This document shows positions 1-12,290 of a DNA stretch of 12,290 nt, in pieces. The stretch lies in IMG/VR virus record IMGVR_UViG_2585427748_000007, positions 1-12,290 of that record, one strand, 5' to 3'. The DNA comes from a virus. Lineage: Duplodnaviria; Heunggongvirae; Uroviricota; Caudoviricetes. Position 1 is the first letter of the stretch. Every line of letters begins with the position of its first letter. Under the pieces are notes generated by a model that was given only the letters and a program-made list of their open reading frames with translations, did not search any database and was not told the DNA's origin. Made by a program: the position numbers and the translations under genes.

Positions 1-218
1 ATATTGTCCAGGTCGCGACGACGCTTATCCGGTGGCTCTGCAATCACCTTTATCGCCAGCCTTCCGGACAGGCTTAATTTCAGCCGCTGCTGGCGAACAA
101 TAAGCGCCACAGCCCGGCGATAACGCTTTCCCTCCTCCGAGATAAAATATGTGCTGCCACGGCGTCGCCAGTAAGTGTTCACCGTCGGCGGGTAAGGTAA
201 AACCAAATCTATGAGCAT
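1..218 (-). CDS. rusA: RusA-like Holliday junction resolvase, N-terminal 72 codons; gene runs off the window edge
   Basis: Minus-strand frame absent from the ORF track because it has no in-window stop. ATG at 218..216 follows AAGAGG. Translation MLIDLVLPYPPTVNTYWRRRGSTYFISEEGKRYRRAVALIVRQQ...AEPPDKRRRDLDN shows the RusA hallmarks (LP.PPS.N.Y and PD.RRRDLDN). It starts 13 nt after the DUF968 stop. Confidence 0.7.
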   Translation of the reverse strand, partial: MLIDLVLPYPPTVNTYWRRRGSTYFISEEGKRYRRAVALIVRQQRLKLSLSGRLAIKVIAEPPDKRRRDLDN

Positions 219-230
219 CAGTCACCTCTT

Positions 231-1277
231 TTACCCAAGCACGCCAGTTGCAAAGGCGTGATCAAGAAAACGAAAAATTAAATCAACCTGAGAACCATGC
301 TTTTCTTCGAACGCCAGCGGATCCGCATGAAGCTCGTTGTGATGCTCCCGACACAGCGGTAGCGTGAAAATATCGTGAGATTTTGTCCCCATTCCGCCCT
401 GACCATGACCAATCAGGTGATGGGGATCGTCGGCTGGCTTACCACAACACGCACACGGCTGTGTCTTTACCCAGCGCGTATATTTCTCATTTACCCAACG
501 GCGACGTTTAGGTCGCTTCATTAAAGATTCCGGAGACTCCGGATCAACAGCAATGCTGACCACCGTCTTTTCCTGTGGCGGGGTTTGCTGGTGGGCGTGA
601 GGCAGCGGCGCAAGATTTTTTGTGCGCTGCTTCAGTATGCTGGTGGCGGTCTGCTCTCCCGGTACGATGTCGCTTTCACGGTACATTGAGCGGATTTTTT
701 CCGCACGCAACCCCAGCGAACGACGTAATACCGCTTCCGGTAGCGCGTCCGCCACCTGATTGCGGACCGCCCACCAGGATAATTCAGCCAGCGATAATTC
801 CCGCTCCTGCGTGCCATTCATTGCATGGCGTATGACGTCAATCATCCATGCTGACAGGTTTTGGTGAGCAAGTTGCCCGAGTGATTCGGAAGTCTGGTCA
901 CGCAGCTGGTTGTCGCAGTGCCAGCACAACACCATCGCGCCGGTACCGTAACGATGTATGACGGTTTCACTGTGATGGTAGTCACCATGAGGCCACTGGC
1001 AGGATTTGACATGACGCAGGAGCCAGTCAGACAGTGCACCAGCACCGCCTGCAGCGCGAATCACCCGTTCGTTGCTGAAAAATGACAGTAATGATTTATC
1101 TTCCGCCAGCGGCTGGCGAACGGCAGGAACGACTCCAGACGGCAGCCCGCGCATGCTTTTCGGTTCAGGCTCCACCAGCACTCGAGGGTTATGAAATACC
1201 TGCATGGATTCACGGCCCGGCTTAAGGACCACCAGCCCGAACTCCGGTACCAGAACAGGTCGAAGTAATACCCGCAC
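231..1277 (-). CDS. DUF968 family phage protein (YdfU-like, HNH-like Cys/His-rich C-terminus)
   Basis: 348-codon ORF. Start codon is GTG (1277..1275) with GGAGG 4 nt upstream. C-terminal segment QPCACCGKPADDPHHLIGHGQGG...LCREHHNELH resembles DUF968 proteins of lambdoid nin regions. Family assignment is from memory. Confidence 0.6.
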   Translation of the reverse strand: MRVLLRPVLVPEFGLVVLKPGRESMQVFHNPRVLVEPEPKSMRGLPSGVVPAVRQPLAEDKSLLSFFSNERVIRAAGGAGALSDWLLRHVKSCQWPHGDYHHSETVIHRYGTGAMVLCWHCDNQLRDQTSESLGQLAHQNLSAWMIDVIRHAMNGTQERELSLAELSWWAVRNQVADALPEAVLRRSLGLRAEKIRSMYRESDIVPGEQTATSILKQRTKNLAPLPHAHQQTPPQEKTVVSIAVDPESPESLMKRPKRRRWVNEKYTRWVKTQPCACCGKPADDPHHLIGHGQGGMGTKSHDIFTLPLCREHHNELHADPLAFEEKHGSQVDLIFRFLDHAFATGVLG

Positions 1278-1278
1278 G

Positions 1279-1557
1279 TTACCTCCAGATGCGTTGCTGA
1301 TATGTGCGGGACGGACGCGGTGGGCGTTCGGAATAAGGGAGTCTGACGTAGATTATCCAGTGACGATAATCGAGGGTGAGGGCTTTCTTAACCTCGTATC
1401 CGCGCCTGCGGTAACACTGAATCAGCCATTCAGCCTGTTCTTCGGTGCAGGGGTCGTGCTGATACCAGTCAGATTTGAATGCATGAGAACGCCGCCCGTG
1501 CCTGCTGGCAAAGACGGCTGAATTATCAGAATTGTATGGTTTGGTATCGTGCGCCAT
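1279..1557 (-). CDS. hypothetical phage protein (92 aa)
   Basis: ORF-track start at 1638 is TTG and would overlap the upstream terminator hairpin. First ATG is at 1557..1555 (MAHDTKPYNS...). Its TAA stop lies 1 nt before the DUF968 GTG start. Ribosome-binding site is weak. Confidence 0.45.
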   Translation of the reverse strand: MAHDTKPYNSDNSAVFASRHGRRSHAFKSDWYQHDPCTEEQAEWLIQCYRRRGYEVKKALTLDYRHWIIYVRLPYSERPPRPSRTYQQRIWR

Positions 1558-1625
1558 CTGTTTTCTCTGCTGGCGCAGCAGGTGCCAGTTGTTCAGGCTG
1601 GCGTGTGGATTGTAAACCAGAATGC

Positions 1626-1655
1626 CAGGAAAAAACAAAACCCGCGAAGCGGGTT
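1626..1655 (-). terminator. rho-independent terminator after the restriction endonuclease gene
   Basis: Stem AACCCGC (1639-1645), loop GAA, stem GCGGGTT (1649-1655). On the minus strand the hairpin is followed by TTGTTTTTTCC. It sits 73 nt downstream of the endonuclease stop. Confidence 0.5.
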
Positions 1656-1727
1656 AGTAAAAATGTACTGAAGTCAATGACGTGCCATCACAGTTAAAAT
1701 ATGACAGACTCTATTTACGTAGAGATG

Positions 1728-2606
1728 TCAGACTGCAAGATCCAAGGGAAGATCAGAAATATCCTTTAATCTTTTACCATTAACCATCACGGAAAGCATG
1801 TCAGCTGCATCGCTGAGCCCCAGTATTTCAACTGCTGATATAAGTTCATAAAGCGCAAAATGATACACGCAATCTATATCACCAGTACCAAGAGCAATAG
1901 ACGCCAGACGACTTGGAGTAGGCTCAGCAGTAACAACCATTACATGAGGGAGATTTCCCTTACGGTTGCGAATAAGATTTAATGCCTCAGAACGAGCATT
2001 CTGGGCCCGGTCGCTTCTTATTGTCCATTTGCAGGAAATACTTGCGTGTAATATTGGTTTCCCACCATTCGAACTCCTGAGAGCTGACATGCGGGTAACA
2101 GAATCATCCACCAGTAATTCAGGACTGTTGATAACTTGATCACATTCAGGTTCTCTTTCAACAATAATATCTGGTGAAATCGTATAATCACTCCCCAGTG
2201 CAGCAGCTAGCTGAGGATTACTTTTTGCAGCACTATCCAATGCTATAAGATGGGCATATTGTTCATATTTAGCTATCTCTAATCTGTTTCTACCAGAAAC
2301 CTGATGTACATTCCATTTTCCAGGGCGTAAGTGGCTGAGTTTAAAAAAGGTTTTTTCTATAAACTCTGCGCAGATACTCTCAAACTGATTACCAGATGTT
2401 TGCCCTGCAACACGTTCACCAATCGTTTCAGCCTGCAAGAAGCGAGCAATTTCTCTTGCTATAGCTTTACTGTTTTTGTTACTGCTATCTGCGTTACTAA
2501 CAACTCCGGCAGTATTAATTGTGAGCGTATTCAGTAACAATTGGGCATGAAACTCCTTTCTGGCTTCAGCAAAACCAACTATGCTGTCAACCAAATCTCC
2601 ATTCAT
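1728..2606 (-). CDS. Type II restriction endonuclease, NgoMIV/Cfr10I/Bse634I-like (292 aa)
   Basis: Start chosen at ATG 2606..2604 (MNGDLVDS...), 13 nt after the methyltransferase stop, preceded by AAGGAAATCCAGAA. Contains ISPDIIVERE and SCKWTIRSDRAQNARSE, i.e. a PD...S-x-K...E arrangement with K-to-E spacing of 14, as I recall for the Cfr10I/NgoMIV active site. Family call is from motif memory, not a search. Confidence 0.6.
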   Translation of the reverse strand: MNGDLVDSIVGFAEARKEFHAQLLLNTLTINTAGVVSNADSSNKNSKAIAREIARFLQAETIGERVAGQTSGNQFESICAEFIEKTFFKLSHLRPGKWNVHQVSGRNRLEIAKYEQYAHLIALDSAAKSNPQLAAALGSDYTISPDIIVEREPECDQVINSPELLVDDSVTRMSALRSSNGGKPILHASISCKWTIRSDRAQNARSEALNLIRNRKGNLPHVMVVTAEPTPSRLASIALGTGDIDCVYHFALYELISAVEILGLSDAADMLSVMVNGKRLKDISDLPLDLAV

Positions 2607-2619
2607 TTCTGGATTTCCT

Positions 2620-3744
2620 TCAGGCTGCTTGACTATTCTTACTGATGTTATTCTTATACCGTCCCTGCAAAACTCCATACACATATTGTGCGATTTTTGC
2701 CGCAAATAGCGGTGGAACAGCATTCCCGATCTGCTTTGCAATCTCAGTTTTTGAACCGGTAAAAATGAAATTATCAGGAAAAGACATTAATCTCGCTGCC
2801 TCACGATGAGTTATTGGCCGATCCTCTTCCGGATGTAAATATCGCCCTTTCTCCGGTTTGAAAAACTCAGTACGAATCGTTACTGAAGGTCTGTCCCACC
2901 ACAGACGTCCAAACAAATCGGTCCCTCCAGATTTCTTTTTTAGCCAGCACGCCGGGGTTATATCAGGTCTTTTTTTCTGTAAATCGAAACGGTTACCTCC
3001 TGGTGGAACCGCTTTATATCGCTCCAGAGAAACAGGTGTGGGATTACGCCCAAAATGTAAGTTCAGCGGAGGAAGTTCATTACGAATATCAGTTCCAACA
3101 GGAGCAGGTAAGTCACCAATTGCATCACGCGTACAGACCCATTCAGGCAAAGCGACATCCTTATCAGGGGAACGATGCGTTGGTGCTGGCGGGAACGCCG
3201 GAATACTATGCACATCGAAGAGTTCTCGTTTGATACCGATTGCTATCGTTCGTTTTCTTGTCTGAGGTACTCCATAGTCAGCAGTATTCAACACCATTGG
3301 ATTAAGCAGAATAAAGCCCATGGATTTCGCTCTAAACGTAATGTCCGCAAACTCATCGCTTATCAGCAATCCGGGGACATTTTCCATGACGAACATACAA
3401 GCCCTTGAACGCTCAATGACATCCATATAAGGCTCCCACAATGCTCTTCGGTGATCACCATAACGATTCTTATTTAATAAACTGAATCCCTGACACGGGG
3501 GGCCACCTATGACCACATCAGCCTCAGGAACAGTATTGCTGGATGCCCACTCCTCAATATTTGCCTGAACTCCATGCAAACCAAAATTGGCATTGTAGGT
3601 ATTTATAGCTGCAGCATTATTATCAATAGCAAGGATACTTTCAAAGTAGTCAGACATCTCTCCATGAAGAAAACCATAAGATAATCCACCTGCCCCACAA
3701 AAGAGGTCTATCACTCTGAATTTATTTAATTCTTTCATCCGCAT
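2620..3744 (-). CDS. DNA (cytosine-5)-methyltransferase (374 aa)
   Basis: Canonical C5-MTase motifs in order: I FCGAGGLSYGF, IV GGPPCQGFS, VI FVMENVPGL, VIII GVPQTRKRTIAIG, X QIGNAVPP. ATG at 3744 with GAGG 7 nt upstream. Confidence 0.85.
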   Translation of the reverse strand: MRMKELNKFRVIDLFCGAGGLSYGFLHGEMSDYFESILAIDNNAAAINTYNANFGLHGVQANIEEWASSNTVPEADVVIGGPPCQGFSLLNKNRYGDHRRALWEPYMDVIERSRACMFVMENVPGLLISDEFADITFRAKSMGFILLNPMVLNTADYGVPQTRKRTIAIGIKRELFDVHSIPAFPPAPTHRSPDKDVALPEWVCTRDAIGDLPAPVGTDIRNELPPLNLHFGRNPTPVSLERYKAVPPGGNRFDLQKKRPDITPACWLKKKSGGTDLFGRLWWDRPSVTIRTEFFKPEKGRYLHPEEDRPITHREAARLMSFPDNFIFTGSKTEIAKQIGNAVPPLFAAKIAQYVYGVLQGRYKNNISKNSQAA

Positions 3745-3922
3745 CCATATGCCTCAGATTAATGTTGAGCGTCTTACAGGACGCGTAATGTTAACTGGGG
3801 CTTTCTCTATCTGCCTTTTGGTGTTCATGCCTGAGGCAGACAGCCTCAGGCACCCGCAGCAATTCTACTTAACTCACGTCACCTCGCCAATATGAAATCA
3901 ATCAGAAAGGTGATCCATAAAA

Positions 3923-4609
3923 TCACTCCTTCTCTTCTTTTCCGTAGTGGAGTTGGCCAATTTTGATAAGAGGGCGTCCCTGAGATTTGCGGTGTAGATT
4001 GGTATCGCGCAGAGAATACACACAGCCACAATATTCCTGCTGATAGAATTTTTCGCGCTTGCTGATTTCAATCATACGGGACGAGCCGCCCTGCTTGCGC
4101 CAGTTATAATCCCAGTACACCATACCCGGATAATGCGCAACAGCTCGCCGCCCACACTCGTTAACCTGCTGCATATTTTTCCAGCGTGAAATGCCCAGTG
4201 AACTGCTGATCACACTGAAACCATTTTCAGCAGCGTACAACGCTGTCCGCTCAAAACGCATGTCAAAACACATGGTACAACGGATCCCCCTCTCAGGCTC
4301 CCATTCCATTCCTTTGGCACGTTCAAACCAGTTGTCGGTGTCGTAATCAGCATCGATAAACGGCACGCCGTGTTGTTCAGCAAAGCGAATATTTTCATCC
4401 TTACGAATTAAATACTCTTTCTGAGGATGAATGTTCGGGTTGTAGAAAAAGATGGTGTAGTCGATTCCCGAGGCCTGAAGCGCCTCCATCACTTCACCGG
4501 AACATGGAGCACAGCAAGAGTGCAGTAGTAGTTTGTTTGCCCCGTTTGGGAGTTCCAATTTAGGCCGTTTGAAATCAGCAATAGTCATAAATATTTTTAT
4601 TGGGGTCAT
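3923..4609 (-). CDS. QueH-like (DUF208) putative epoxyqueuosine reductase-family protein (228 aa)
   Basis: N-terminal [13 protein letters not shown] plus downstream CTMC and C-terminal YCGCVYS Cys motifs, matching my recollection of the DUF208/QueH Fe-S signature. Start could be ATG 4609 or ATG 4588; neither has a strong ribosome-binding site. Confidence 0.55.
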
Positions 4610-4762
4610 GAAAATAGCACAGAGTGTAGCATCAGAGCAGGGCTATCGGGAATATATGTCTAAATCTGGTAATATCTGGTTTTGACGCAAAGCGGACAAC
4701 CACGCTGGCTCTACCCTGCGCCATGAAAATGTCAATTCACATCTGAACTAATGCTCTTTAAT

Positions 4763-4766
4763 CTAG
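4763..4766. repeat. IS5 target-site duplication CTAG (left copy)
   Basis: CTAG directly abuts the IS5 terminal inverted repeat. The same tetranucleotide flanks the other end at 5963-5966. IS5 makes 4-bp duplications at YTAR targets. Confidence 0.8.
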
Positions 4767-5962
<1,196 letters not shown>

Positions 5963-5966
5963 CTAG
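5963..5966. repeat. IS5 target-site duplication CTAG (right copy); also supplies the TAG stop of the adjacent gene
   Basis: CTAG immediately outside the IS5 inverted repeat. On the minus strand, 5965..5963 reads TAG, the stop codon of the 131-aa gene. Confidence 0.8.
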
Positions 5967-6358
5967 TAACGTCTAAAATACCTAACATTTCCTTGATAAA
6001 ATGTCAGTACACGCTGCATAGCTTCGCTCTTCCGGCACTCGCGACAGATTATATTCAGGCGCCTGTCGTAGCGGCGTATTTCTCCGTCTGGTAACTTTCG
6101 AATCAGTGTCGGGTCAGCAGCCTTCTCCGGTGTCTTACGCCATACGCGATACGCCTGCTCTGATGGAAATACCCCGCAATCACAGAGCCAGACATCACCA
6201 CTGGCCGCAAGCGCACCAGATAAACGACGAATAGCGGTCTTACTGACACCCGTTTTATCTGCCAGTTGTCGAAAAGTTTCTCGTCCGCTCAGGCGCACGA
6301 ATTCCACAATGCGCGCCTTCACTTCTTCCCGCTCTTCTGGTGTAAATACTTTTGCCAT
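5963..6358 (-). CDS. hypothetical phage protein with HTH-like segment and Cys cluster (131 aa)
   Basis: ORF-track start at 6373 is TTG. ATG at 6358..6356 (MAKVFTPEE...) follows GGAGG with a 5-nt spacer. Contains TFRQLADKTGVSKTAIRRL (HTH-like) and CDC...CRECR. Stop codon lies in the IS5 duplication. Confidence 0.5.
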   Translation of the reverse strand: MAKVFTPEEREEVKARIVEFVRLSGRETFRQLADKTGVSKTAIRRLSGALAASGDVWLCDCGVFPSEQAYRVWRKTPEKAADPTLIRKLPDGEIRRYDRRLNIICRECRKSEAMQRVLTFYQGNVRYFRRY

Positions 6359-6373
6359 AAGCGCCTCCGGCAA

Positions 6374-7144
6374 TCACTTTTCCGACACAATACGACCGGA
6401 TGAATCGACAATCTGTCGAACAATATCCCGGTGCTTGTACAGCTCCCGCAGCGCGGCGCAGACTCGCTCCCACTTCTGAACCTGACCTTTTGCCCGGCGC
6501 AGCTCGCGGTTAGCCACATGCAGCGATGGTAAAATCAGACCATCCGGATGTTTTCTGGTGAACGACGGCTGTGACTGCACTGTGACCGCCACACTTTCAG
6601 TTTTTATTTCTTCCTGTGTTTCCGCTTCCCGGACAGGTAACGCAATACCTGCTGGCTGAGGAATGGCTTTACCATCCGTTTCCGCTACGGATGCAGCTTC
6701 CGGCTCTGCCGGTAAATCAGCGCCCGGTATGCAGTAACGAAATTTACCGTTCTGATTTACGCGTGCCAGGCGCCCCGTTGCTGTTACGACCGCCAACGTG
6801 GAAGCAACCTTGCGAATGCTAACACCGAACTTATCCGCCAGTTCCTCACACGTTTTAGCCCCATCCTGACAGATAAACTCAATCATCATGTCCGCGGTAA
6901 CTTTTTGTTCGACCTCCCCGGTCAGCATATCCTGTGCTTCAGATTTTACTGGCCGCTCTTCGGTTACCCGGGATTCACCTTCGCCAGCCAGAAACCAGGT
7001 GTGACCAGTTTTATCAACGACGCCATTTCTTTTGAGTTCCCACAGCTCGTTGACAGCCTCTTCACGACTGATTCCAAGGCGAGCTGCCACCACATGTGAA
7101 GAGGCTTTTTTCAGTGCTTTCAGTGCGTCAAATACGGTTTCCAT
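6374..7144 (-). CDS. hypothetical phage protein with two winged-helix-like segments (256 aa)
   Basis: ORF-track start at 7162 is TTG. ATG at 7144..7142 (METVFDALK...) follows GGAGGA. Its TGA stop is 15 nt upstream of the ATG of the 131-aa gene. Function not recognised. Confidence 0.5.
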   Translation of the reverse strand: METVFDALKALKKASSHVVAARLGISREEAVNELWELKRNGVVDKTGHTWFLAGEGESRVTEERPVKSEAQDMLTGEVEQKVTADMMIEFICQDGAKTCEELADKFGVSIRKVASTLAVVTATGRLARVNQNGKFRYCIPGADLPAEPEAASVAETDGKAIPQPAGIALPVREAETQEEIKTESVAVTVQSQPSFTRKHPDGLILPSLHVANRELRRAKGQVQKWERVCAALRELYKHRDIVRQIVDSSGRIVSEK

Positions 7145-7177
7145 TAATATTTCCTCCGACAAAATCGTTTCTCAGAT

Positions 7178-7840
7178 TCAAATAAAACCAGCTGCCTTCC
7201 GGCGTTCGTATTCCTGTTTCAGCCGTTCAATTGGCGTTGGCCCTTGCGGGTGTTTCGCCCCTTCCAGTTGTCGTCGCACTGGCGGAACACTCATCCCGTT
7301 ACCAACATGCTTTGCCCATTTCGTCAGTTGCCGTTCCGCAAGTCGTTTTAACTCACCCTGCGTCATCTGGCGCTCAATCCCTCTGGTACGCATTTCGAGG
7401 CAGATGTGGTACAGCACAGGCTGTGGCCACGGGTATTTATCACTCCCGTCGTATCGCCAGGATTCATTGCGCCAGCGCCGGTACTCTTCCATCACTGCAT
7501 CCACCGTAAGACCAAATGGATTTGCCCCACTCTCCGAAATCAGTGCAACAAACTCAGCCAGGTCCGGGGGCCACGTTTCACCCGCCCGGCAGCGGTCCAT
7601 GCACTGACGGCAGACCAGCCGGATTTGCTGTTCAGTCATCGCGCCAATCTGGGCAATCCAGAGCTTCGAAGGTGCGGCCCCGTTCTTCTGTGTCCAGCGG
7701 TTCGAATACACCTCCCCCATAAGCTCCCACAGCTTCCAGGCCGTTTCCGTTGCTGATAAATCCGTTGTCACGTTCCCACTGTTCGCGTGCTGCCCGGATT
7801 TCCTGAACTGCCCGTGATGCCGTGCCACCTGATGCTGCAT
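7178..7840 (-). CDS. replication protein P-like (helicase loader), lambda P family
   Basis: Recalled similarity to lambda P: GETWPPDLAEFVAL vs PFLPSPGQFVAW, YPWPQPVLYHICLEMR vs YPWKSNAHYWLVTNLYQNMR, ELKRLAERQL vs ELRRKAADEL. ATG 7840 has AAGGGGG upstream. The N-terminal 209 nt overlap the O-like ORF out of frame; an alternative start ATG 7639 forms ATGACTGA with the O-like stop. Confidence 0.6.
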   Translation of the reverse strand: MQHQVARHHGQFRKSGQHANSGNVTTDLSATETAWKLWELMGEVYSNRWTQKNGAAPSKLWIAQIGAMTEQQIRLVCRQCMDRCRAGETWPPDLAEFVALISESGANPFGLTVDAVMEEYRRWRNESWRYDGSDKYPWPQPVLYHICLEMRTRGIERQMTQGELKRLAERQLTKWAKHVGNGMSVPPVRRQLEGAKHPQGPTPIERLKQEYERRKAAGFI

Positions 7841-8648
7841 GGCTTACCCCCTTGCTGACTGGTTTTACCTGTGCCCTGACGTGCTGCACGTGGCGGGCAA
7901 ATTTCTGCTCCCACTGAACCTGCGTGAAAACCTTCCCCTCCGCCATCCAGTAATCCCGGAATGCGGCAAGCTCTGCAGGTGTAAATTCCGGCTCAGGCAG
8001 AGCCATACCCCACACTGCTGCCCGTTGTCGAAAATCCGACGACGGCTGCCAGACAGTAGTCATCGAAAATTTCCCGATCGGTTCGCTCAGGCCGTCCAGG
8101 TATTCAGGTTCGGCTGTCTGCAACGGCGCACCATGCGACTCACCGGTTGGAGCACTCTCGCGCATGCGCGCGTTATGTGTGGGGTTTAATTCTGTATCTG
8201 TATCTTTATCTGTCGTGACTTGTCGTGACATGTGCGTGACATTTCGTGACGCGCCGTGACAATCGCCATTTTGTTCCCGCTTTCTTTCCCTCTCACGCTG
8301 CGCCCTCTTGCGCTCTGCCGGAGATTTTGCGGTTTGCGAAATATTGCCGTTGTCCTCTTTAAGCACCTGGCGTTTTTCCCATCCAGTGATTAAATCACCA
8401 TCAAGTACCCGCCCCTGCATCGTCTGCAAAATTGAATCAATTACCTCTTCTGTCACGTCGAGCGCACTTGCCAAATCTTCTGTCGTGACATCAATGTGAC
8501 CTCGCGTGACATTTCGTGACGCGCTCACCAGGAGGTGGATATACACTGCCATCACTGTTGCAATTGGCTGCCCTGACACCCTGGCAATTGTTCGCCACTT
8601 AGGGTCATTTGGCATGTCATGCCATAATCTGAGCCAGGCGTTAGCCAT
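7632..8648 (-). CDS. phage replication initiator (O-like) containing internal iterons
   Basis: 338 codons from ATG 8648..8646 (MANAWLRL...), preceded by AAGAGGTGA. ORF-track start at 8654 is GTG. Sits in the O position between ydaT and the P-like gene and contains two CGTGAC repeat clusters, as lambda O contains ori. Not sequence-similar to lambda O as far as I can recall. Confidence 0.6.
   Translation of the reverse strand: MANAWLRLWHDMPNDPKWRTIARVSGQPIATVMAVYIHLLVSASRNVTRGHIDVTTEDLASALDVTEEVIDSILQTMQGRVLDGDLITGWEKRQVLKEDNGNISQTAKSPAERKRAQRERERKREQNGDCHGASRNVTHMSRQVTTDKDTDTELNPTHNARMRESAPTGESHGAPLQTAEPEYLDGLSEPIGKFSMTTVWQPSSDFRQRAAVWGMALPEPEFTPAELAAFRDYWMAEGKVFTQVQWEQKFARHVQHVRAQVKPVSKGVSHAASGGTASRAVQEIRAAREQWERDNGFISNGNGLEAVGAYGGGVFEPLDTEERGRTFEALDCPDWRDD
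8191..8260. repeat. iteron cluster 1: five CGTGAC copies at 10-11 bp spacing, preceded by TGTATC/TTTATC repeats
   Basis: CGTGAC at 8214, 8224, 8235, 8245 and 8255 (start positions), helical periodicity. Lies inside the O-like coding region. Confidence 0.55.
8453..8524. repeat. iteron cluster 2: CGTGAC/TGTGAC copies at 10-11 bp spacing plus one inverted copy
   Basis: Copies start at 8484, 8495, 8505 and 8515; inverted GTCACG at 8453. The 21-bp block GCGTGACATTTCGTGACGCGC (8504-8524) is an exact copy of 8234-8254. Confidence 0.55.
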
Positions 8649-8719
8649 ACTCACCTCTTCTGATACCGAATCTTTTTACTCACGAGTTGCCGGAAGCGAT
8701 TCGATATGGCTATTGTCAG

Positions 8720-9145
8720 TCAATGTACTGCCACAGCATTTCCTGCCGGGCCACCACGGTTCATCTGATTGAAACCGGCGATTGCCACTGCGACAAAATC
8801 ATCAGCGTCTCTCACCAGTCGCTCCCGCGTCTCCACCAGCTCCCGAAAATAAGCTGAACTGTGGCTGCGCATTCTGGCCACCAGCAAAGGTGGCATTGCC
8901 TTTTCGATCGCTGGTAACAACGCCTGAATTTTTTCAACTGCATCAGGGGTGTCTTTCTCTACCCAGCGGAAAATTTTCTGGGTATTACGGGCCAGGGCTT
9001 CCGGATGGCTGTCGTCGTACAGTTCCGGGAACGTCATCCCCAGTTCGAAATAAGTCCGGGCTATTTCAGCTGCTGGAACTTTCTCACCGTCTGGATACGC
9101 CCAGGCATTCATTGCCATGCGGATGTGTTCATGCTTGATTTTCAT
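8720..9145 (-). CDS. ydaT: YdaT-like regulator (reported CII functional analogue), 141 aa
   Basis: ATG at 9145..9143 (MKIKHEHIRMAMNAW...), preceded by GGGGGGA. The ORF-track 5' extension is rejected. Position immediately after the Cro-like gene and the MKIKHEHI N-terminus fit the YdaT family as I recall it. Confidence 0.6.
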   Translation of the reverse strand: MKIKHEHIRMAMNAWAYPDGEKVPAAEIARTYFELGMTFPELYDDSHPEALARNTQKIFRWVEKDTPDAVEKIQALLPAIEKAMPPLLVARMRSHSSAYFRELVETRERLVRDADDFVAVAIAGFNQMNRGGPAGNAVAVH

Positions 9146-9404
9146 GAATCCCCCCCGCCTCTGGTTGTGTGTTAGCCTGATACTCGACAGGTAAGCCGTC
9201 GGTTGGGTTGGGATAAGTACTGCCATCAATCTCGTGCGGAGTTACTATCCAGCCTGTTGCTTCGCACCAGCGTAAAATTTTTTTCCCCGTAAGTTTCGCC
9301 CGTCCGGTAATGACATGGCTTACCATCCCTTGGGTTACCCCAACAATTTCAGCAAAATGCTTCTGAGTTATACCGGAATGATGCAAATATTCTCCAAGAT
9401 TCAT
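9129..9404 (-). CDS. ydaS: YdaS-like Cro-type HTH regulator (91 aa)
   Basis: ATG at 9404 with GAGGTGA upstream. HTH-like segment ITQKHFAEIVGVTQGMVSHV. Divergent from paaR2 and overlaps the ydaT start by 17 nt. Confidence 0.6.
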   Translation of the reverse strand: MNLGEYLHHSGITQKHFAEIVGVTQGMVSHVITGRAKLTGKKILRWCEATGWIVTPHEIDGSTYPNPTDGLPVEYQANTQPEAGGIHENQA

Positions 9405-9511
9405 TGTTCACCTCATGTGATGTCATCACGATCACTAATAGCATTGTTATTTTTAAAAGTAAATAGCATCACTATTTCAAAGAGATTAATAATCTTATTA
9501 GAATTGAAGGT
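9405..9511. promoter_or_regulatory. divergent promoter/operator region between ydaS and paaR2 (OR-like)
   Basis: Perfect palindrome GTGATG-T-CATCAC (9417-9429). Two imperfect 7-1-7 sites built on AATAGCA (9437-9451 and 9462-9476), centres 25 bp apart. Putative rightward promoter: -35 TTCAAA (9476-9481), 17-bp spacer, -10 TAGAAT (9499-9504), start about 9511, which would give a near-leaderless paaR2 mRNA. Confidence 0.45.
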
Positions 9512-10012
9512 ATGAAAAGAAAATCCCTGTCAGAGATCGACCTGCAAGCCGCCCAGAGACTGAAAGAAATCTGGACGGCGAAAAAAAATCAACTAGGGTT
9601 AACCCAAGAGCGTGCGGCAGAAATTCTGGGATTTTCGACACAGGGAGCTGTAAGCCATTATCTAAATGGTCAGACACCTTTAAATCTTGAGGCTGTTATC
9701 AAGTTCGCAGGGTTGCTGCAAGTTCCTCCCGAGTCAATCAGACCAGATATGGCCGAGTTGTTACAAATTGTAAGGATGTATCCCCAAGAATCTGGGGAGG
9801 ACAATGTTGTCACTATATCTGCAGATATGGAACAATCGGAAAACGAACTTCCGTTTAATATAGACCCCATGGAGCGGGATTTGCTCCAGACGTTCAGGGC
9901 TTTCCCCAAAGAAGATAAAGAGAAAATGCTTAAGGAAATGAAGGAGAAAAAAGAATCAATTGAAGAAATCGTTGCGCGATGGCTAGCTGCGCAAAAGGGT
10001 CGTCGCGCCTAA
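9512..10012 (+). CDS. paaR2: PaaR2-like XRE-family HTH regulator (CI-like position), 166 aa
   Basis: HTH-like segment LTQERAAEILGFSTQGAVSHYLNG. First gene of a three-gene operon with a 63-aa antitoxin and a ParE toxin, matching the paaR2-paaA2-parE2 organisation reported for E. coli O157 prophages. The GAAGG upstream is only 1 nt from the ATG. Confidence 0.65.
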   Translation: MKRKSLSEIDLQAAQRLKEIWTAKKNQLGLTQERAAEILGFSTQGAVSHYLNGQTPLNLEAVIKFAGLLQVPPESIRPDMAELLQIVRMYPQESGEDNVVTISADMEQSENELPFNIDPMERDLLQTFRAFPKEDKEKMLKEMKEKKESIEEIVARWLAAQKGRRA

Positions 10013-10029
10013 TCTGAGGAGGTAAAAAC

Positions 10030-10221
10030 ATGAGTACAGCCCTTTCCCCGATAATTTCTGAATTTGAAACAGTCGAACAAGAAAACAGCTATAACGAATG
10101 GTTGCGAACCAAAGTGGCAGCAAGCCTCTCAGATCCCCGTCCTGCAATTCCACATGACGAAGTAATGGCTGAAATGGAAAACCTTATTGCTCAATTAGCT
10201 GCAACGAACAGGAGTGAGTAA
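10030..10221 (+). CDS. paaA2: PaaA2-like antitoxin (63 aa)
   Basis: Strong GAGGAGG 7 nt upstream. Small acidic protein. Its TAA stop overlaps the toxin ATG in TAATG. Confidence 0.65.
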   Translation: MSTALSPIISEFETVEQENSYNEWLRTKVAASLSDPRPAIPHDEVMAEMENLIAQLAATNRSE

Positions 10222-10511
10222 TGCTGCCCATTTTATGGCTACCTTCTGCACGTGATGATTTACGTCAGATCGTAGCCTATATTGCTAAGGAAAACCCTCC
10301 CGCTGCACGTAGACTAAAAATACGCATTGAAACATCAGTTTTGTCACTTACTGAACACCCTTATCTGTACCCACCGAGCGAAAGAGTTCCAAGTCTTCGT
10401 GAGATAGTGACTCATCCTAACTACATAATACTTTACCGAGTAACAGCATCTAACATCGAGATCGTAAATGTAGTTCACTCACGAAGACAGTATCCAAACA
10501 AAACCTGTTAA
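10221..10511 (+). CDS. parE2: ParE/RelE-superfamily toxin (ParE2-like), 96 aa
   Basis: Typical ParE size, start translationally coupled to the antitoxin stop, followed by a strong terminator. N-terminus MLPILWLPSARDDLRQIVAYIAKENPPAARRL is ParE-like. Confidence 0.7.
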   Translation: MLPILWLPSARDDLRQIVAYIAKENPPAARRLKIRIETSVLSLTEHPYLYPPSERVPSLREIVTHPNYIILYRVTASNIEIVNVVHSRRQYPNKTC

Positions 10512-10525
10512 TCCTTCCTGTCAAC

Positions 10526-10549
10526 AACCACCTTCGGGTGGTTTTTTTC
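10526..10549 (+). terminator. rho-independent terminator of the paaR2-paaA2-parE2 operon
   Basis: Stem AACCACC, loop TTCG, stem GGTGGTT, then TTTTTT (10544-10549), 15 nt after the parE2 stop. Confidence 0.7.
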
Positions 10550-10559
10550 TTGCCACGAT

Positions 10560-10598
10560 AATAGCACTGCTATTTACATAATTAAATAGTAGTGGTAT
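10560..10598. promoter_or_regulatory. OL-like operator pair upstream of the ydfA-dicB operon
   Basis: Perfect 7-1-7 palindrome AATAGCA-C-TGCTATT (10560-10574) and imperfect AATAGTA-G-TGGTATT (10584-10598), centres 24 bp apart. Same half-site as the sites at 9437-9476. Confidence 0.4.
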
Positions 10599-10780
10599 TG
10601 TTCATTCATCAACCCACCCCGCCCCACAGAACGCCAGGCAATACTTCGAGTTACCCGGCAGTGGTCAGGGGTTAAGTAGCCAGCCCGAGGCGTATGAACA
10701 TGACGGCGGGAACACTTTATATAACAGCGCAGCAGTTTTTTAGTTCCGCTACCCCGGCGTTAAGGGGAAATGAGGTCAGC

Positions 10781-10936
10781 ATGGATACTATCGATCTTGG
10801 CAACAATGAATCTCTGGTGTACGGCGTGTTTCCCAACCAGGACGGCACATTCACCGCGATGACGTATACCAAAAGCAAAACGTTTAAAACCGAAAATGGT
10901 GCCCGTCGCTGGCTGGAAAGAAACTCAGGTGAGTGA
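10781..10936 (+). CDS. ydfA: YdfA-like small protein (51 aa)
   Basis: ATG 10781 with GAGGT upstream (MDTIDLGNNESLVYGVFPNQDG...). First gene of the ydfA-ydfB-ydfC-dicF-dicB arrangement known from Qin. The ORF-track N-terminal extension from 10694 is rejected. Confidence 0.7.
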   Translation: MDTIDLGNNESLVYGVFPNQDGTFTAMTYTKSKTFKTENGARRWLERNSGE

Positions 10937-10937
10937 T

Positions 10938-11066
10938 ATGGATTTCGACACAATCATGGAAAAGGCTTACGAAGAATACTTCGAAGGCCTTGCCGAAGGC
11001 GAAGAAGCTCTCAGCTTCAGTGAGTTTAAACAGGCGCTTTCCAGCTCGGCAAAATCTAACGGCTGA
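10938..11066 (+). CDS. ydfB: YdfB-like small protein (42 aa)
   Basis: Not in the ORF track (under 60 aa). ATG 10938 is 1 nt after the ydfA TGA. Translation MDFDTIMEKAYEEYFEGLAEGEEALSFSEFKQALSSSAKSNG. Confidence 0.65.
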   Translation: MDFDTIMEKAYEEYFEGLAEGEEALSFSEFKQALSSSAKSNG

Positions 11067-11095
11067 TAAGCGAAACAGCACCGCGAGGAATCAGT

Positions 11096-11314
11096 ATGCA
11101 GAAACGAGAACCCGTCATCATCGCGCCAGACTATACCGATGATGAACTTTATGAGTGGATGCACCAGAAAATTAATGCAGCGCAGGATCTGAAATGGGCC
11201 AATGAAGCCAGGGCTAAGCAGGCTGAAAATCTGTCCGCTCTGGAGCAGGATATCACTAATCTGGAAAAAGCAGCGGCATTAAGCATTGCCAGAATGATTA
11301 CATACCCGCGTTAA
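11096..11314 (+). CDS. ydfC: YdfC-like protein (72 aa)
   Basis: ATG 11096 with GAGGAA upstream (MQKREPVIIAPDYTDDELYEWMHQKINAAQ...). Size and position match ydfC of the dicB operon. Confidence 0.7.
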   Translation: MQKREPVIIAPDYTDDELYEWMHQKINAAQDLKWANEARAKQAENLSALEQDITNLEKAAALSIARMITYPR

Positions 11315-11336
11315 TAGCTAACCAACGAGGCTAATA

Positions 11337-11711
11337 ATGGAATTTAAAGATTTACCAATGCAATTCCAGGAAATGGCAGCGAATATAGTTCGTTCCCAAC
11401 TGGCGACTCTTGACCTGAGTACCGTAGAAAAAGAAACCATCGACAATATATCCGGTAACGTACGCCGAGCCTTTATCGGGCTGTACGAAGAGAAGCAGCT
11501 CTCTGATAACCAGGATTTACATGAAAAATACTTTCTGGAATTAATGGACATCATTAATAAAGGATTTGGCTTGTTAATGAAAAAGAAAGGGATTCGAATA
11601 GCTCCCCTTGAAAATCATTTTACAGCAAGCAGTATTAATTCCTGTGATTTAAAGCATCACACATCCGATGGGAAAGTTGAATCAAACAACAAAATATCGA
11701 TTAATCATTAA
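11337..11711 (+). CDS. hypothetical protein (124 aa), AT-rich, inserted between ydfC and dicF
   Basis: ATG 11337 with GAGG 7 nt upstream. Noticeably more AT-rich than its neighbours. No recognisable motifs, acidic, no obvious hydrophobic segments. Confidence 0.5.
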   Translation: MEFKDLPMQFQEMAANIVRSQLATLDLSTVEKETIDNISGNVRRAFIGLYEEKQLSDNQDLHEKYFLELMDIINKGFGLLMKKKGIRIAPLENHFTASSINSCDLKHHTSDGKVESNNKISINH

Positions 11712-12016
11712 TTTATTCACAGGTGAGGTAGAGTGCGTGCGCCGGACACGGATAAGAATCCGGCACTGACAGTTTACTGAAAAGGATATATCCCTGAAAA
11801 GTCAGGGCATAACACGAAAGCGCCCGGAGAAGTTAGTCTCTCTGTATAGGTCGTCGTTAAATTTAATTCGATCGTGCGCTTCCGGTTGTGGCAATCCGCG
11901 AAATGGCGCGGCGGTAAGTATGGCGGGGGTATTTCTTCCCCCCCCGAGGACACCGGGTTGTCAGGTTGACCATACGCTTAAGTGACAACCCCGCTGCAAC
12001 GCCCTCTGTTATCAAT

Positions 12017-12075
12017 TTTCTGGTGACGTTTGGCGGTATCAGTTTTACTCCGTGACTGCTCTGCCGCCCTTTTTA
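12017..12075 (+). ncRNA. dicF: DicF small RNA (ftsZ-targeting sRNA), approximate ends
   Basis: Sequence TTTCTGGTGACGTTTGGCGGTATCAGTTTTACTCCGTGACTGCTCTGCCGCCCTTTTT matches the DicF sequence as I recall it, ending in a GC-rich stem and T-run, and it sits just upstream of dicB. Exact 5' and 3' ends are not determined here. Confidence 0.65.
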
Positions 12076-12243
12076 AAGTGAATTTTGTGATGTGGTGAAT
12101 GCGGCTGAGCGCACGCGGAACAGTTAAAACCAAAAACAGTGTTATGGGTGGATTCTCTGTATCCGGCGTTAATTGTTAACTGGTTAACGTCACCTGGAGG
12201 CACCAGGCACCGCATCACAAAATTCATTGTTGAGGACGCGATA

Positions 12244-12290
12244 ATGGAAACGTTATTACCAAACGTTAATACGTCTGAAGGTTGTTTTGA
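12244..12290 (+). CDS. dicB: DicB cell-division inhibitor, N-terminal fragment (runs off window)
   Basis: ATG 12244 with GAGGA 7 nt upstream. METLLPNVNTSEGCF matches the DicB N-terminus as recalled (K-12 has K at position 2). Confidence 0.7.
   Translation, partial: METLLPNVNTSEGCF

Follow-up and report, generated by a model that had tools for sequence, protein, structure and literature searches.

A predicted GCCGGC-directed restriction-modification pair of mixed lineages in the place of the hokD coding region of a lambdoid prophage of Escherichia coli

A PstI-like type II restriction-modification (R-M) system is known on the Stx2 prophage of Escherichia coli O104:H4, and the restriction endonucleases NgoMIV and NaeI both recognise GCCGGC, cut as G^CCGGC by the former and as GCC^GGC by the latter. 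NgoMIV is a type IIF enzyme encoded on the chromosome of Neisseria gonorrhoeae (PDB 1FIU/4ABT). Its RXDR motif contacts the core of the site, Q63 has a role as well, and its specificity for GCCGGC is strict (PMC3413111); R227 and D34 contact the outer G:C pair, with a role also described for E201 (PMC5389614), and further work assigns roles to S192 and E201 and describes a tetramer acting on two sites (PMC4652773). Cfr10I and Bse634I, which cut R^CCGGY, belong to the same fold family, with a permuted active site and an R-(D/E)R core motif (PMC3413111). These two read the outer pair loosely, and at the positions equivalent to the outer-pair readers Bse634I has P203 and N73 (PMC3413111, PMC4652773). 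Here we analyse a gene pair related to these systems, a C5-cytosine DNA methyltransferase (M) and an endonuclease (R), in a stretch of 12,290 nucleotides (nt) of E. coli lambdoid prophage DNA (IMG/VR record IMGVR_UViG_2585427748_000007, positions 1 to 12,290; hereafter the window, whose positions are used as coordinates throughout). We consider it likely that M and R form an intact two-gene type II R-M system of mixed lineages, directed at GCCGGC and grafted onto the transcription signals of a hokD locus, which would protect the DNA of the lysogen while cutting unmodified incoming DNA. Like the PstI-like system, the pair is type II R-M cargo of a temperate E. coli phage, but the enzymes, the site and the position on the phage differ.

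R, a protein of 292 amino acids, matches the Pfam family PF09015 (NgoMIV_restric) from end to end (profile positions 1-275 of 275) with 423 bits against a cut-off of 23.2 (expectation value E 6e-127), as well as the PADLOC type II nuclease model REase_II (E 8e-126), and its sole match in the Protein Data Bank is NgoMIV (1fiu, 4abt; E 1e-118). The two enzymes are of the same length class (292 versus 286 amino acids) and are 65.8% identical in a global alignment. All 15 NgoMIV positions that we checked are identical in R: D34, Q63, E70, P139, D140, S185, C186, K187, R191, S192, D193, R194, N197, E201 and R227. Among them are the permuted active site PD...(S)xK...x13...E and the glutamate upstream of it, which in R are E76, D146, K193 and E207 (E70, D140, K187 and E201 in NgoMIV), and the RSDR reader of the CCGG core (the R-(D/E)R motif, R191-S192-D193-R194 in NgoMIV), found at residues 197-200. 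The readers of the outer G:C pair are also retained, with D40, Q69 and R233 of R corresponding to D34, Q63 and R227 of NgoMIV and with S192 identical. A preliminary description of this DNA, made from the letters and their translations, had recognised an active site of the NgoMIV/Cfr10I/Bse634I type in this open reading frame (ORF), and the full-length profile match, the match to the NgoMIV structure and the identity of the catalytic residues, with no catalytic mutation in the alignment, agree with it.

The same description had named RCCGGY or GCCGGC as the target. The CCGG core stands, and the choice between the two can be narrowed: because the outer-pair readers D34, Q63, S192 and R227 are all identical and Bse634I differs there, R is predicted to be strictly specific for GCCGGC and to cut it as G^CCGGC, and a degenerate site of the kind read by Cfr10I and Bse634I is unlikely. 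By analogy with NgoMIV, we infer that R would act as a tetramer on two sites.

M is a C5-cytosine DNA methyltransferase by its profile matches (PF00145, 184.6 bits against a cut-off of 22, E 4e-54; TIGR00675, E 5e-45) and carries all the canonical motifs, FCGAGG (I), GGPPCQGFS (IV), ENV (VI), QTRKR (VIII) and GNAVPP (X), with motif IX also counted as present. We surveyed homologues of R at 80 loci from other phyla (R 59-78% identical), taking E 1e-10 as the cut-off for an adjacent M-like gene. Just upstream of R, in the gene order of the window and with both genes on one strand, 47 of the 80 loci carry a short methyltransferase (~310 amino acids where fully aligned; 324 in L038, where one ORF was read). 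This is the common NgoMIV-type cassette of many phyla, with a methyltransferase of ~318 amino acids ahead of an R that is 60-78% identical. The M of the window has 372 amino acids and is 25-28% identical to those of the short lineage, with 25-30% as the upper bound over the 47 loci. In the remaining 33, nothing M-like next to R passed this cut-off. We take M.NgoMIV itself to belong to the short lineage; the database matches bore no such name. By these comparisons, M lies outside the lineage that usually accompanies NgoMIV-type nucleases and belongs to a separate one, and the partner of R is of another lineage than that of NgoMIV. The surveyed nucleases themselves (genome contigs L005-L084) come from Proteobacteria, Acidobacteria, Planctomycetes, Firmicutes, Chloroflexi and Actinobacteria, and their high identity to R across such distant phyla implies that a protein under tight constraint has often been transferred horizontally.

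Enterobacterales and further Gammaproteobacteria commonly carry close relatives of M, and the nuclease beside these relatives varies. In Cronobacter, a relative of M is followed after a 13-nt gap by an NgoMIV-type R, the same architecture as in the window. In P2-like prophages of Yersinia and Psychromonas the relative adjoins an HNH protein of ~330 amino acids. At locus L087 a 66%-identical relative stands beside an NaeI-type nuclease (PF09126; E 7.6e-35 against NaeI of the Protein Data Bank); there the genes are convergent, unlike the co-oriented pair of the window, whose nuclease is not NaeI-like although the predicted site is the same. A survey of M relatives in viral contigs covered 68 loci. 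An NgoMIV-type R follows the copies of M that are 73-80% identical as well as the nearly identical ones of E. coli, and contigs L116-L119 and L154 carry the same M-R pair with the 13-nt gap; nearly all the remaining loci continue with an HNH protein, 32-100% identical to that of Yersinia, and two complete loci have neither nuclease.

The HNH protein (L085 5100-6092; L086 4654-5640; L120-L157) is the most frequent downstream neighbour of the M relatives. An HNH motif marks its C-terminal part, and segments of the type ...ARRIRELR..GW... are repeated in its N-terminal part. It lies mostly in P2-like prophages, and the M relatives that it accompanies are 47-77% identical to M, with the same target-recognition region. 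It may represent a third, unrelated type of nuclease for the same site.

In C5-methyltransferases, specificity is set by the region between motifs VIII and IX. In our alignment this target-recognition region is almost invariant among the M relatives with NgoMIV-type, NaeI-type and HNH partners. Since NgoMIV and NaeI share GCCGGC as their site, the simplest reading is that this lineage, M included, methylates GCCGGC and has swapped its nuclease partners. Large protein database searches returned generic names only, and a kinship of M with M.NaeI was not confirmed by name in them.

M and R are adjacent and co-oriented on the minus strand: M ends with TGA at 2622-2620, and R runs from the ATG at 2606 to a stop codon at 1730-1728. 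Their pairing is kept in other genomes, and by sequence the two constitute a type II R-M operon. This is what the preliminary description had proposed, namely an intact operon carried as prophage cargo and made of a C5 methyltransferase with all canonical motifs, a 13-nt gap and a 292-amino-acid ORF with its own AAGGA site. Its coordinates and motifs proved correct, and the proposal is supported by the Pfam matches of both proteins, by the Protein Data Bank and PADLOC matches of R, by residue conservation, by purifying selection (see below) and by the occurrence of this arrangement of two genes in further genera. From the first in-frame ATG (3744), which is confined to the allele of the window, M would have 374 amino acids; the length of 372 is counted from ATG 3738, the start kept across alleles and chosen by PGAP/RefSeq. 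As an alternative for R we considered a TTG-started ORF of 337 amino acids (1728-2741), which was rejected because homologues and a structure-based alignment favour ATG 2606. The cassette has a GC content of 41-46% against ~55% in its flanks.

Alignment with related prophages indicates that the cassette has precisely replaced the mok/hok coding part of hokD (relF), a type I toxin-antitoxin locus of the hok/sok type. In two aligned prophages that carry QueH but no R-M pair (RM-less prophages), the hokD toxin gene occupies the position of the cassette. Upstream, homology to these prophages runs from the stop codon of QueH through the promoter-like site (3890-3862) and ~100 nt of hok leader, ending ...AATCTGAGGC (3751) with the Shine-Dalgarno sequence of mok, and it breaks at 3751, a few bases ahead of the start codons of M. 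Downstream, homology to hokD loci returns at ~1658, at the terminator hairpin. The window therefore has the promoter, the first ~100 nt of the leader and the terminator of a hokD locus, with M and R instead of the mok and hok ORFs, the stretch where the sok promoter would be expected and the fold-back element at the 3' end (fbi). In the alignments with hokD loci, the hok toxin ORF and the overlapping mok ORF are absent from the window, and so is fbi ahead of the terminator: the intact locus has CCTCAACGCACCC there, complementary to the 5' GGGTGCTTGAGG, while the sequence of the window is unrelated (for the roles of fbi and the other hok elements, see PMC9841398). The Rfam model RF01794 (sok/hok leader) scores 61.0 bits on window positions 3855-3675 (gathering score 59), with a good alignment only to about model position 88 and a misaligned 3' part, versus 120.5 bits on an intact hokD locus; by these scores the leader is a remnant and not a working hok locus. 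A consensus scan found no sok promoter on the antisense strand of the window, but the same scan was blind to it in the intact hokD locus as well and is uninformative on this point.

The hairpin and T-run that the preliminary description took for a dedicated terminator do exist (AACCCGCTTCGCGGGTT). Because homology to hokD loci resumes there, however, this terminator is that of the displaced locus, borrowed by the cassette and not specific to the pair. In addition, a region of ~100 nt that is conserved upstream of the cassette relatives of other genera is missing from the E. coli copy. Both junctions and the missing native region indicate that the cassette came without upstream signals of its own and that it now lies between the hokD promoter-leader and the hokD terminator; a promoter and terminator owned by the cassette were rejected on these grounds. 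The site TTGGCG-17 nt-TAGAAT is thus the likely promoter of M and R in the lysogen. Both E. coli alleles of the cassette (see below) have the same hokD junction, so that the capture should predate their divergence, and the hok-leader segment, which 3,947 of the 5,426 complete E. coli genomes carry, would offer ample homology for movement of the cassette between prophages. The short ORF that overlaps the start codons of M (Table 1) is retained by the junction variants of other alleles. One viral-contig copy of the ~97% identical allele (L115, 3800-4010) has a different upstream sequence, which resembles the native upstream region of the other-genera relatives, and a different lambdoid context; it still ends at a hokD-type terminator.

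A further hypothesis is that the graft is functional in itself. The hok promoter and leader, with the 5' hairpin, the mok ribosome-binding site and the short overlapping ORF, would then provide control at the RNA level that keeps expression of M and R low and ordered, in place of the controller proteins or native promoters by which other type II systems are safely established in a new host, and one addiction module would have taken the place of another within an unchanged regulatory frame. We regard this extension as improbable.

Mechanistically, M and R would be co-transcribed in the lysogen from the hokD promoter and leader to the hokD terminator, and once the prophage is induced, further transcription would come from read-through out of the early operon of the phage. 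R would be translated from its own AGGA site. M would place 5-methylcytosine (5mC) within GCCGGC of the host and prophage DNA, shielding both, while R, a PD...K...E nuclease acting as a tetramer on two sites, would cleave unmethylated G^CCGGC of incoming DNA. From the features described, enzymatic activity, specificity of M for GCCGGC, use of the promoter and a defence phenotype would all be expected, and a defence benefit to the lysogen is plausible. The features of the locus are collected in Table 1.

Table 1. Features of the R-M locus and its borders in the window (all on the minus strand)
Feature	Position	Strand	Basis
QueH (epoxyqueuosine reductase), upstream neighbour, outside the R-M cassette	3923..4588	-	PF02677, E 1e-65
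Promoter-like site TTGGCG-17 nt-TAGAAT	3862..3890	-	Consensus scan; common to intact hokD of strain AZ161; invariant in alignment with RM-less prophages
Remnant of hok messenger RNA 5' leader, from tac-type 5' hairpin to mok Shine-Dalgarno GAGG at 3755-3752	3752..3855	-	Rfam RF01794
Short upstream ORF of 8 codons, ATG 3748 to TAA 3722, in another frame, overlapping the start codons of M	3722..3748	-	Direct reading
C5-cytosine DNA methyltransferase M, WP_001427299.1	2620..3744, conserved start ATG 3738	-	PF00145, TIGR00675, motifs
M-R spacer of 13 nt, containing AAGGA; AGGA ribosome-binding site 9 nt ahead of the R start	2607..2619	-	Sequence
NgoMIV-family type II restriction endonuclease R, 292 amino acids, WP_001012717.1	1728..2606	-	PF09015, Protein Data Bank, PADLOC
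3' untranslated tail of the cassette, without the hok fold-back (fbi) element	1659..1727	-	Alignment with intact hokD
Intrinsic terminator, hokD-derived, 7-bp stem, TTCG loop region, T-run	1628..1655	-	Hairpin AACCCGCTTCGCGGGTT and T-run

The cassette (2,093 bp) occurs in 60 of the 5,426 complete E. coli genomes, always chromosomal, in single copy, free of insertions and deletions and with both genes annotated. The copies inspected lie in lambdoid prophages, with at least three different backbones and integration sites. A single O157:H7 clone, to which strain 9000 and the Z-series belong, accounts for about half of the 60 carriers; among the others are O111, O103 and O39 strains, an enteropathogenic E. 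coli strain and various isolates from humans. Strain A34, together with a few viral contigs, carries a second allele, ~97% identical. Comparison of the two E. coli alleles gives a ratio of nonsynonymous to synonymous substitution rates (dN/dS) of 0.125 (M) and 0.10 (R), and in comparison with other genera, where synonymous sites are saturated, the proportion of nonsynonymous differences (pN) is 0.11-0.17. Both genes are under purifying selection. The junction between them (stop-AGGA-9 nt-ATG) is kept in the Cronobacter and viral-contig relatives. In an older assembly, L131, homopolymer losses affect an A-run of M (2976) and the T-run of the terminator (1635); these may be sequencing errors, because loss of M with R intact should be lethal. 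The genome closest to the window is that of strain JKHS016 (L004 3536-6021), whose prophage looks defective, with a truncated portal gene abutting a truncated tail-tip gene, and in which both R-M genes are intact.

As an annotation the cassette is not new, since in RefSeq R already bears the name "NgoMIV family type II restriction endonuclease". The GenBank phage collection holds no nucleotide match to the cassette, and a search of GenBank phage proteins gave a single record for R, metagenomic and 56% identical, while for M nothing reached E 1e-60.

Type II R-M pairs can act as addiction modules, and the pair could have been selected mainly in this capacity, stabilising the prophage by post-segregational killing in succession to the hok/sok locus that it replaced, with phage defence as a secondary effect. 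Its place in the former hok locus and the intact state of both genes in the defective-looking JKHS016 prophage speak for this reading. Addiction is, however, compatible with defence and does not exclude it, and the same slot carries many unrelated cargo genes in other prophages. Moreover, a preprint (bioRxiv 10.1101/2025.08.07.668861) states that the chromosomal hok loci tested did not mediate post-segregational killing. Selection mainly for addiction is a possible history, but in our judgement an unlikely one. Since an R-M pair can kill cells from which it is lost, and since this one took over a hok site, stabilisation of the prophage nevertheless deserves serious consideration as an alternative or a further role.

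We find it very doubtful that lysogens leave R unexpressed or without activity and that M is the useful product, modifying phage DNA in lytic growth so that the progeny escape GCCGGC-specific restriction in new hosts. Loss of the native upstream region and co-orientation with the early operon could mean that expression is strong only on induction, and in viral contigs L112 and L113 R is frameshifted while M is intact. But R is intact in all 60 of the complete-genome carriers, its dN/dS is as low as that of M, its catalytic residues are all identical to those of NgoMIV, and its ribosome-binding site is conserved. The least probable account is a specificity other than that of NgoMIV, such as the degenerate RCCGGY of Cfr10I and Bse634I or another CCGG-containing site: R does differ from NgoMIV at 34% of its positions, M is outside the classic partner lineage, and enzymes of the family vary in their reading of the outer base pair (PMC3413111), but D34, Q63, S192, R227 and the RSDR motif are identical to those of NgoMIV where Bse634I has P203 and N73 (PMC3413111, PMC4652773), and M relatives also partner an NaeI-type enzyme.

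Several observations weigh against our preferred reading of the pair as an intact, GCCGGC-directed system expressed from hokD signals. The specificity assigned to M derives from its partners and not from a characterised homologue, and the NaeI-type partner is only a distant relative of NaeI. The conserved start of M, ATG 3738, sits 13 nt from the GAGG of mok and is overlapped by the 8-codon ORF. The L115 copy has no hok leader, so that the hokD promoter is not obligatory. Decay of the pair does occur, as seen in a 1-nt deletion in R of the viral-contig copies L112 and L113 (window-equivalent 2357). Literature searches found no paper on the R-M system or on hokD with restriction-modification. 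Finally, the preliminary description had proposed a count of RCCGGY and GCCGGC sites as a check, and the count of GCCGGC does not discriminate: 4-5 sites are observed in the carrying prophages against 12-15 expected under a maximal-order Markov model, but this depletion is no greater than that of other GC-rich palindromes or of RM-less relatives, and lends no support.

The low counts extend to GCCGGC, GGCGCC, GCGCGC and CGGCCG alike, all of them two- to ten-fold below the Markov expectation in the prophage parts L001, L002 and L004, with or without the R-M pair. The only GCCGGC of the window is at 5229, inside the insertion sequence IS5.

Taken globally, the analysis predicts that ~1% of complete E. 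coli genomes, including the O157:H7 clone (strain 9000, Z-series) and several O111, O103 and O39 strains, bear a 5mC mark at GCCGGC that varies between strains, together with a restriction barrier. Such a mark and barrier could affect the transformation efficiency, the phage susceptibility and the interpretation of the methylomes of the carriers. The details that are new, of modest evolutionary interest, are the predicted strict specificity for GCCGGC, the combination of an M and an R from different lineages and the precise exchange of hokD for a cassette that reuses the hokD transcription signals. The M lineage would illustrate a shuffling of partners at constant specificity, one methyltransferase lineage being found with three unrelated nuclease folds, and the cargo slot of the lambdoid prophage appears to have traded hok/sok for a different selfish or defensive module, with the signals kept in use. 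Knowledge of the mechanism of such enzymes, a very well studied family, is unchanged by the finding.

The window spans the early and nin part of a lambdoid prophage, in the minus-strand order immunity region, replication genes, DUF1627, DUF977, IS5, QueH, M, R, a small ORF, DUF968 and the start of RusA. The nin-like location between the replication genes and rusA given in the preliminary description is therefore right. The QueH gene is present in 956 of the 5,426 complete E. coli genomes, versus 60 for the R-M block, and in strain AZ161 it is followed by an intact hokD. QueH, an enzyme of the transfer RNA queuosine pathway, is itself prophage cargo. In strain A34 (L216 11585-13220) the cassette is preceded by genes for a 'beta family protein' and a 'sce7726 family protein' instead of QueH, another variable cargo pair.

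The IS5 copy lies between QueH and DUF977 (4767-5962), with inverted repeats GGAAGGTGCGAA at both ends and a transposase ORF of 338 amino acids, and the RM-less prophage of strain B1_2 has an IS5 at the equivalent position. On the plus strand, the immunity region holds a block of three genes (9512-10511) for a helix-turn-helix protein of 166 amino acids, a PaaA2-type antitoxin (10030-10221, PF21217) and a ParE-family toxin (10221-10511, PF05016), a set that we take to resemble the PaaR2-PaaA2-ParE2 module. The small RNA DicF is found at 12018-12069, also on the plus strand, as a full-length match to Rfam RF00039 (76.7 bits).

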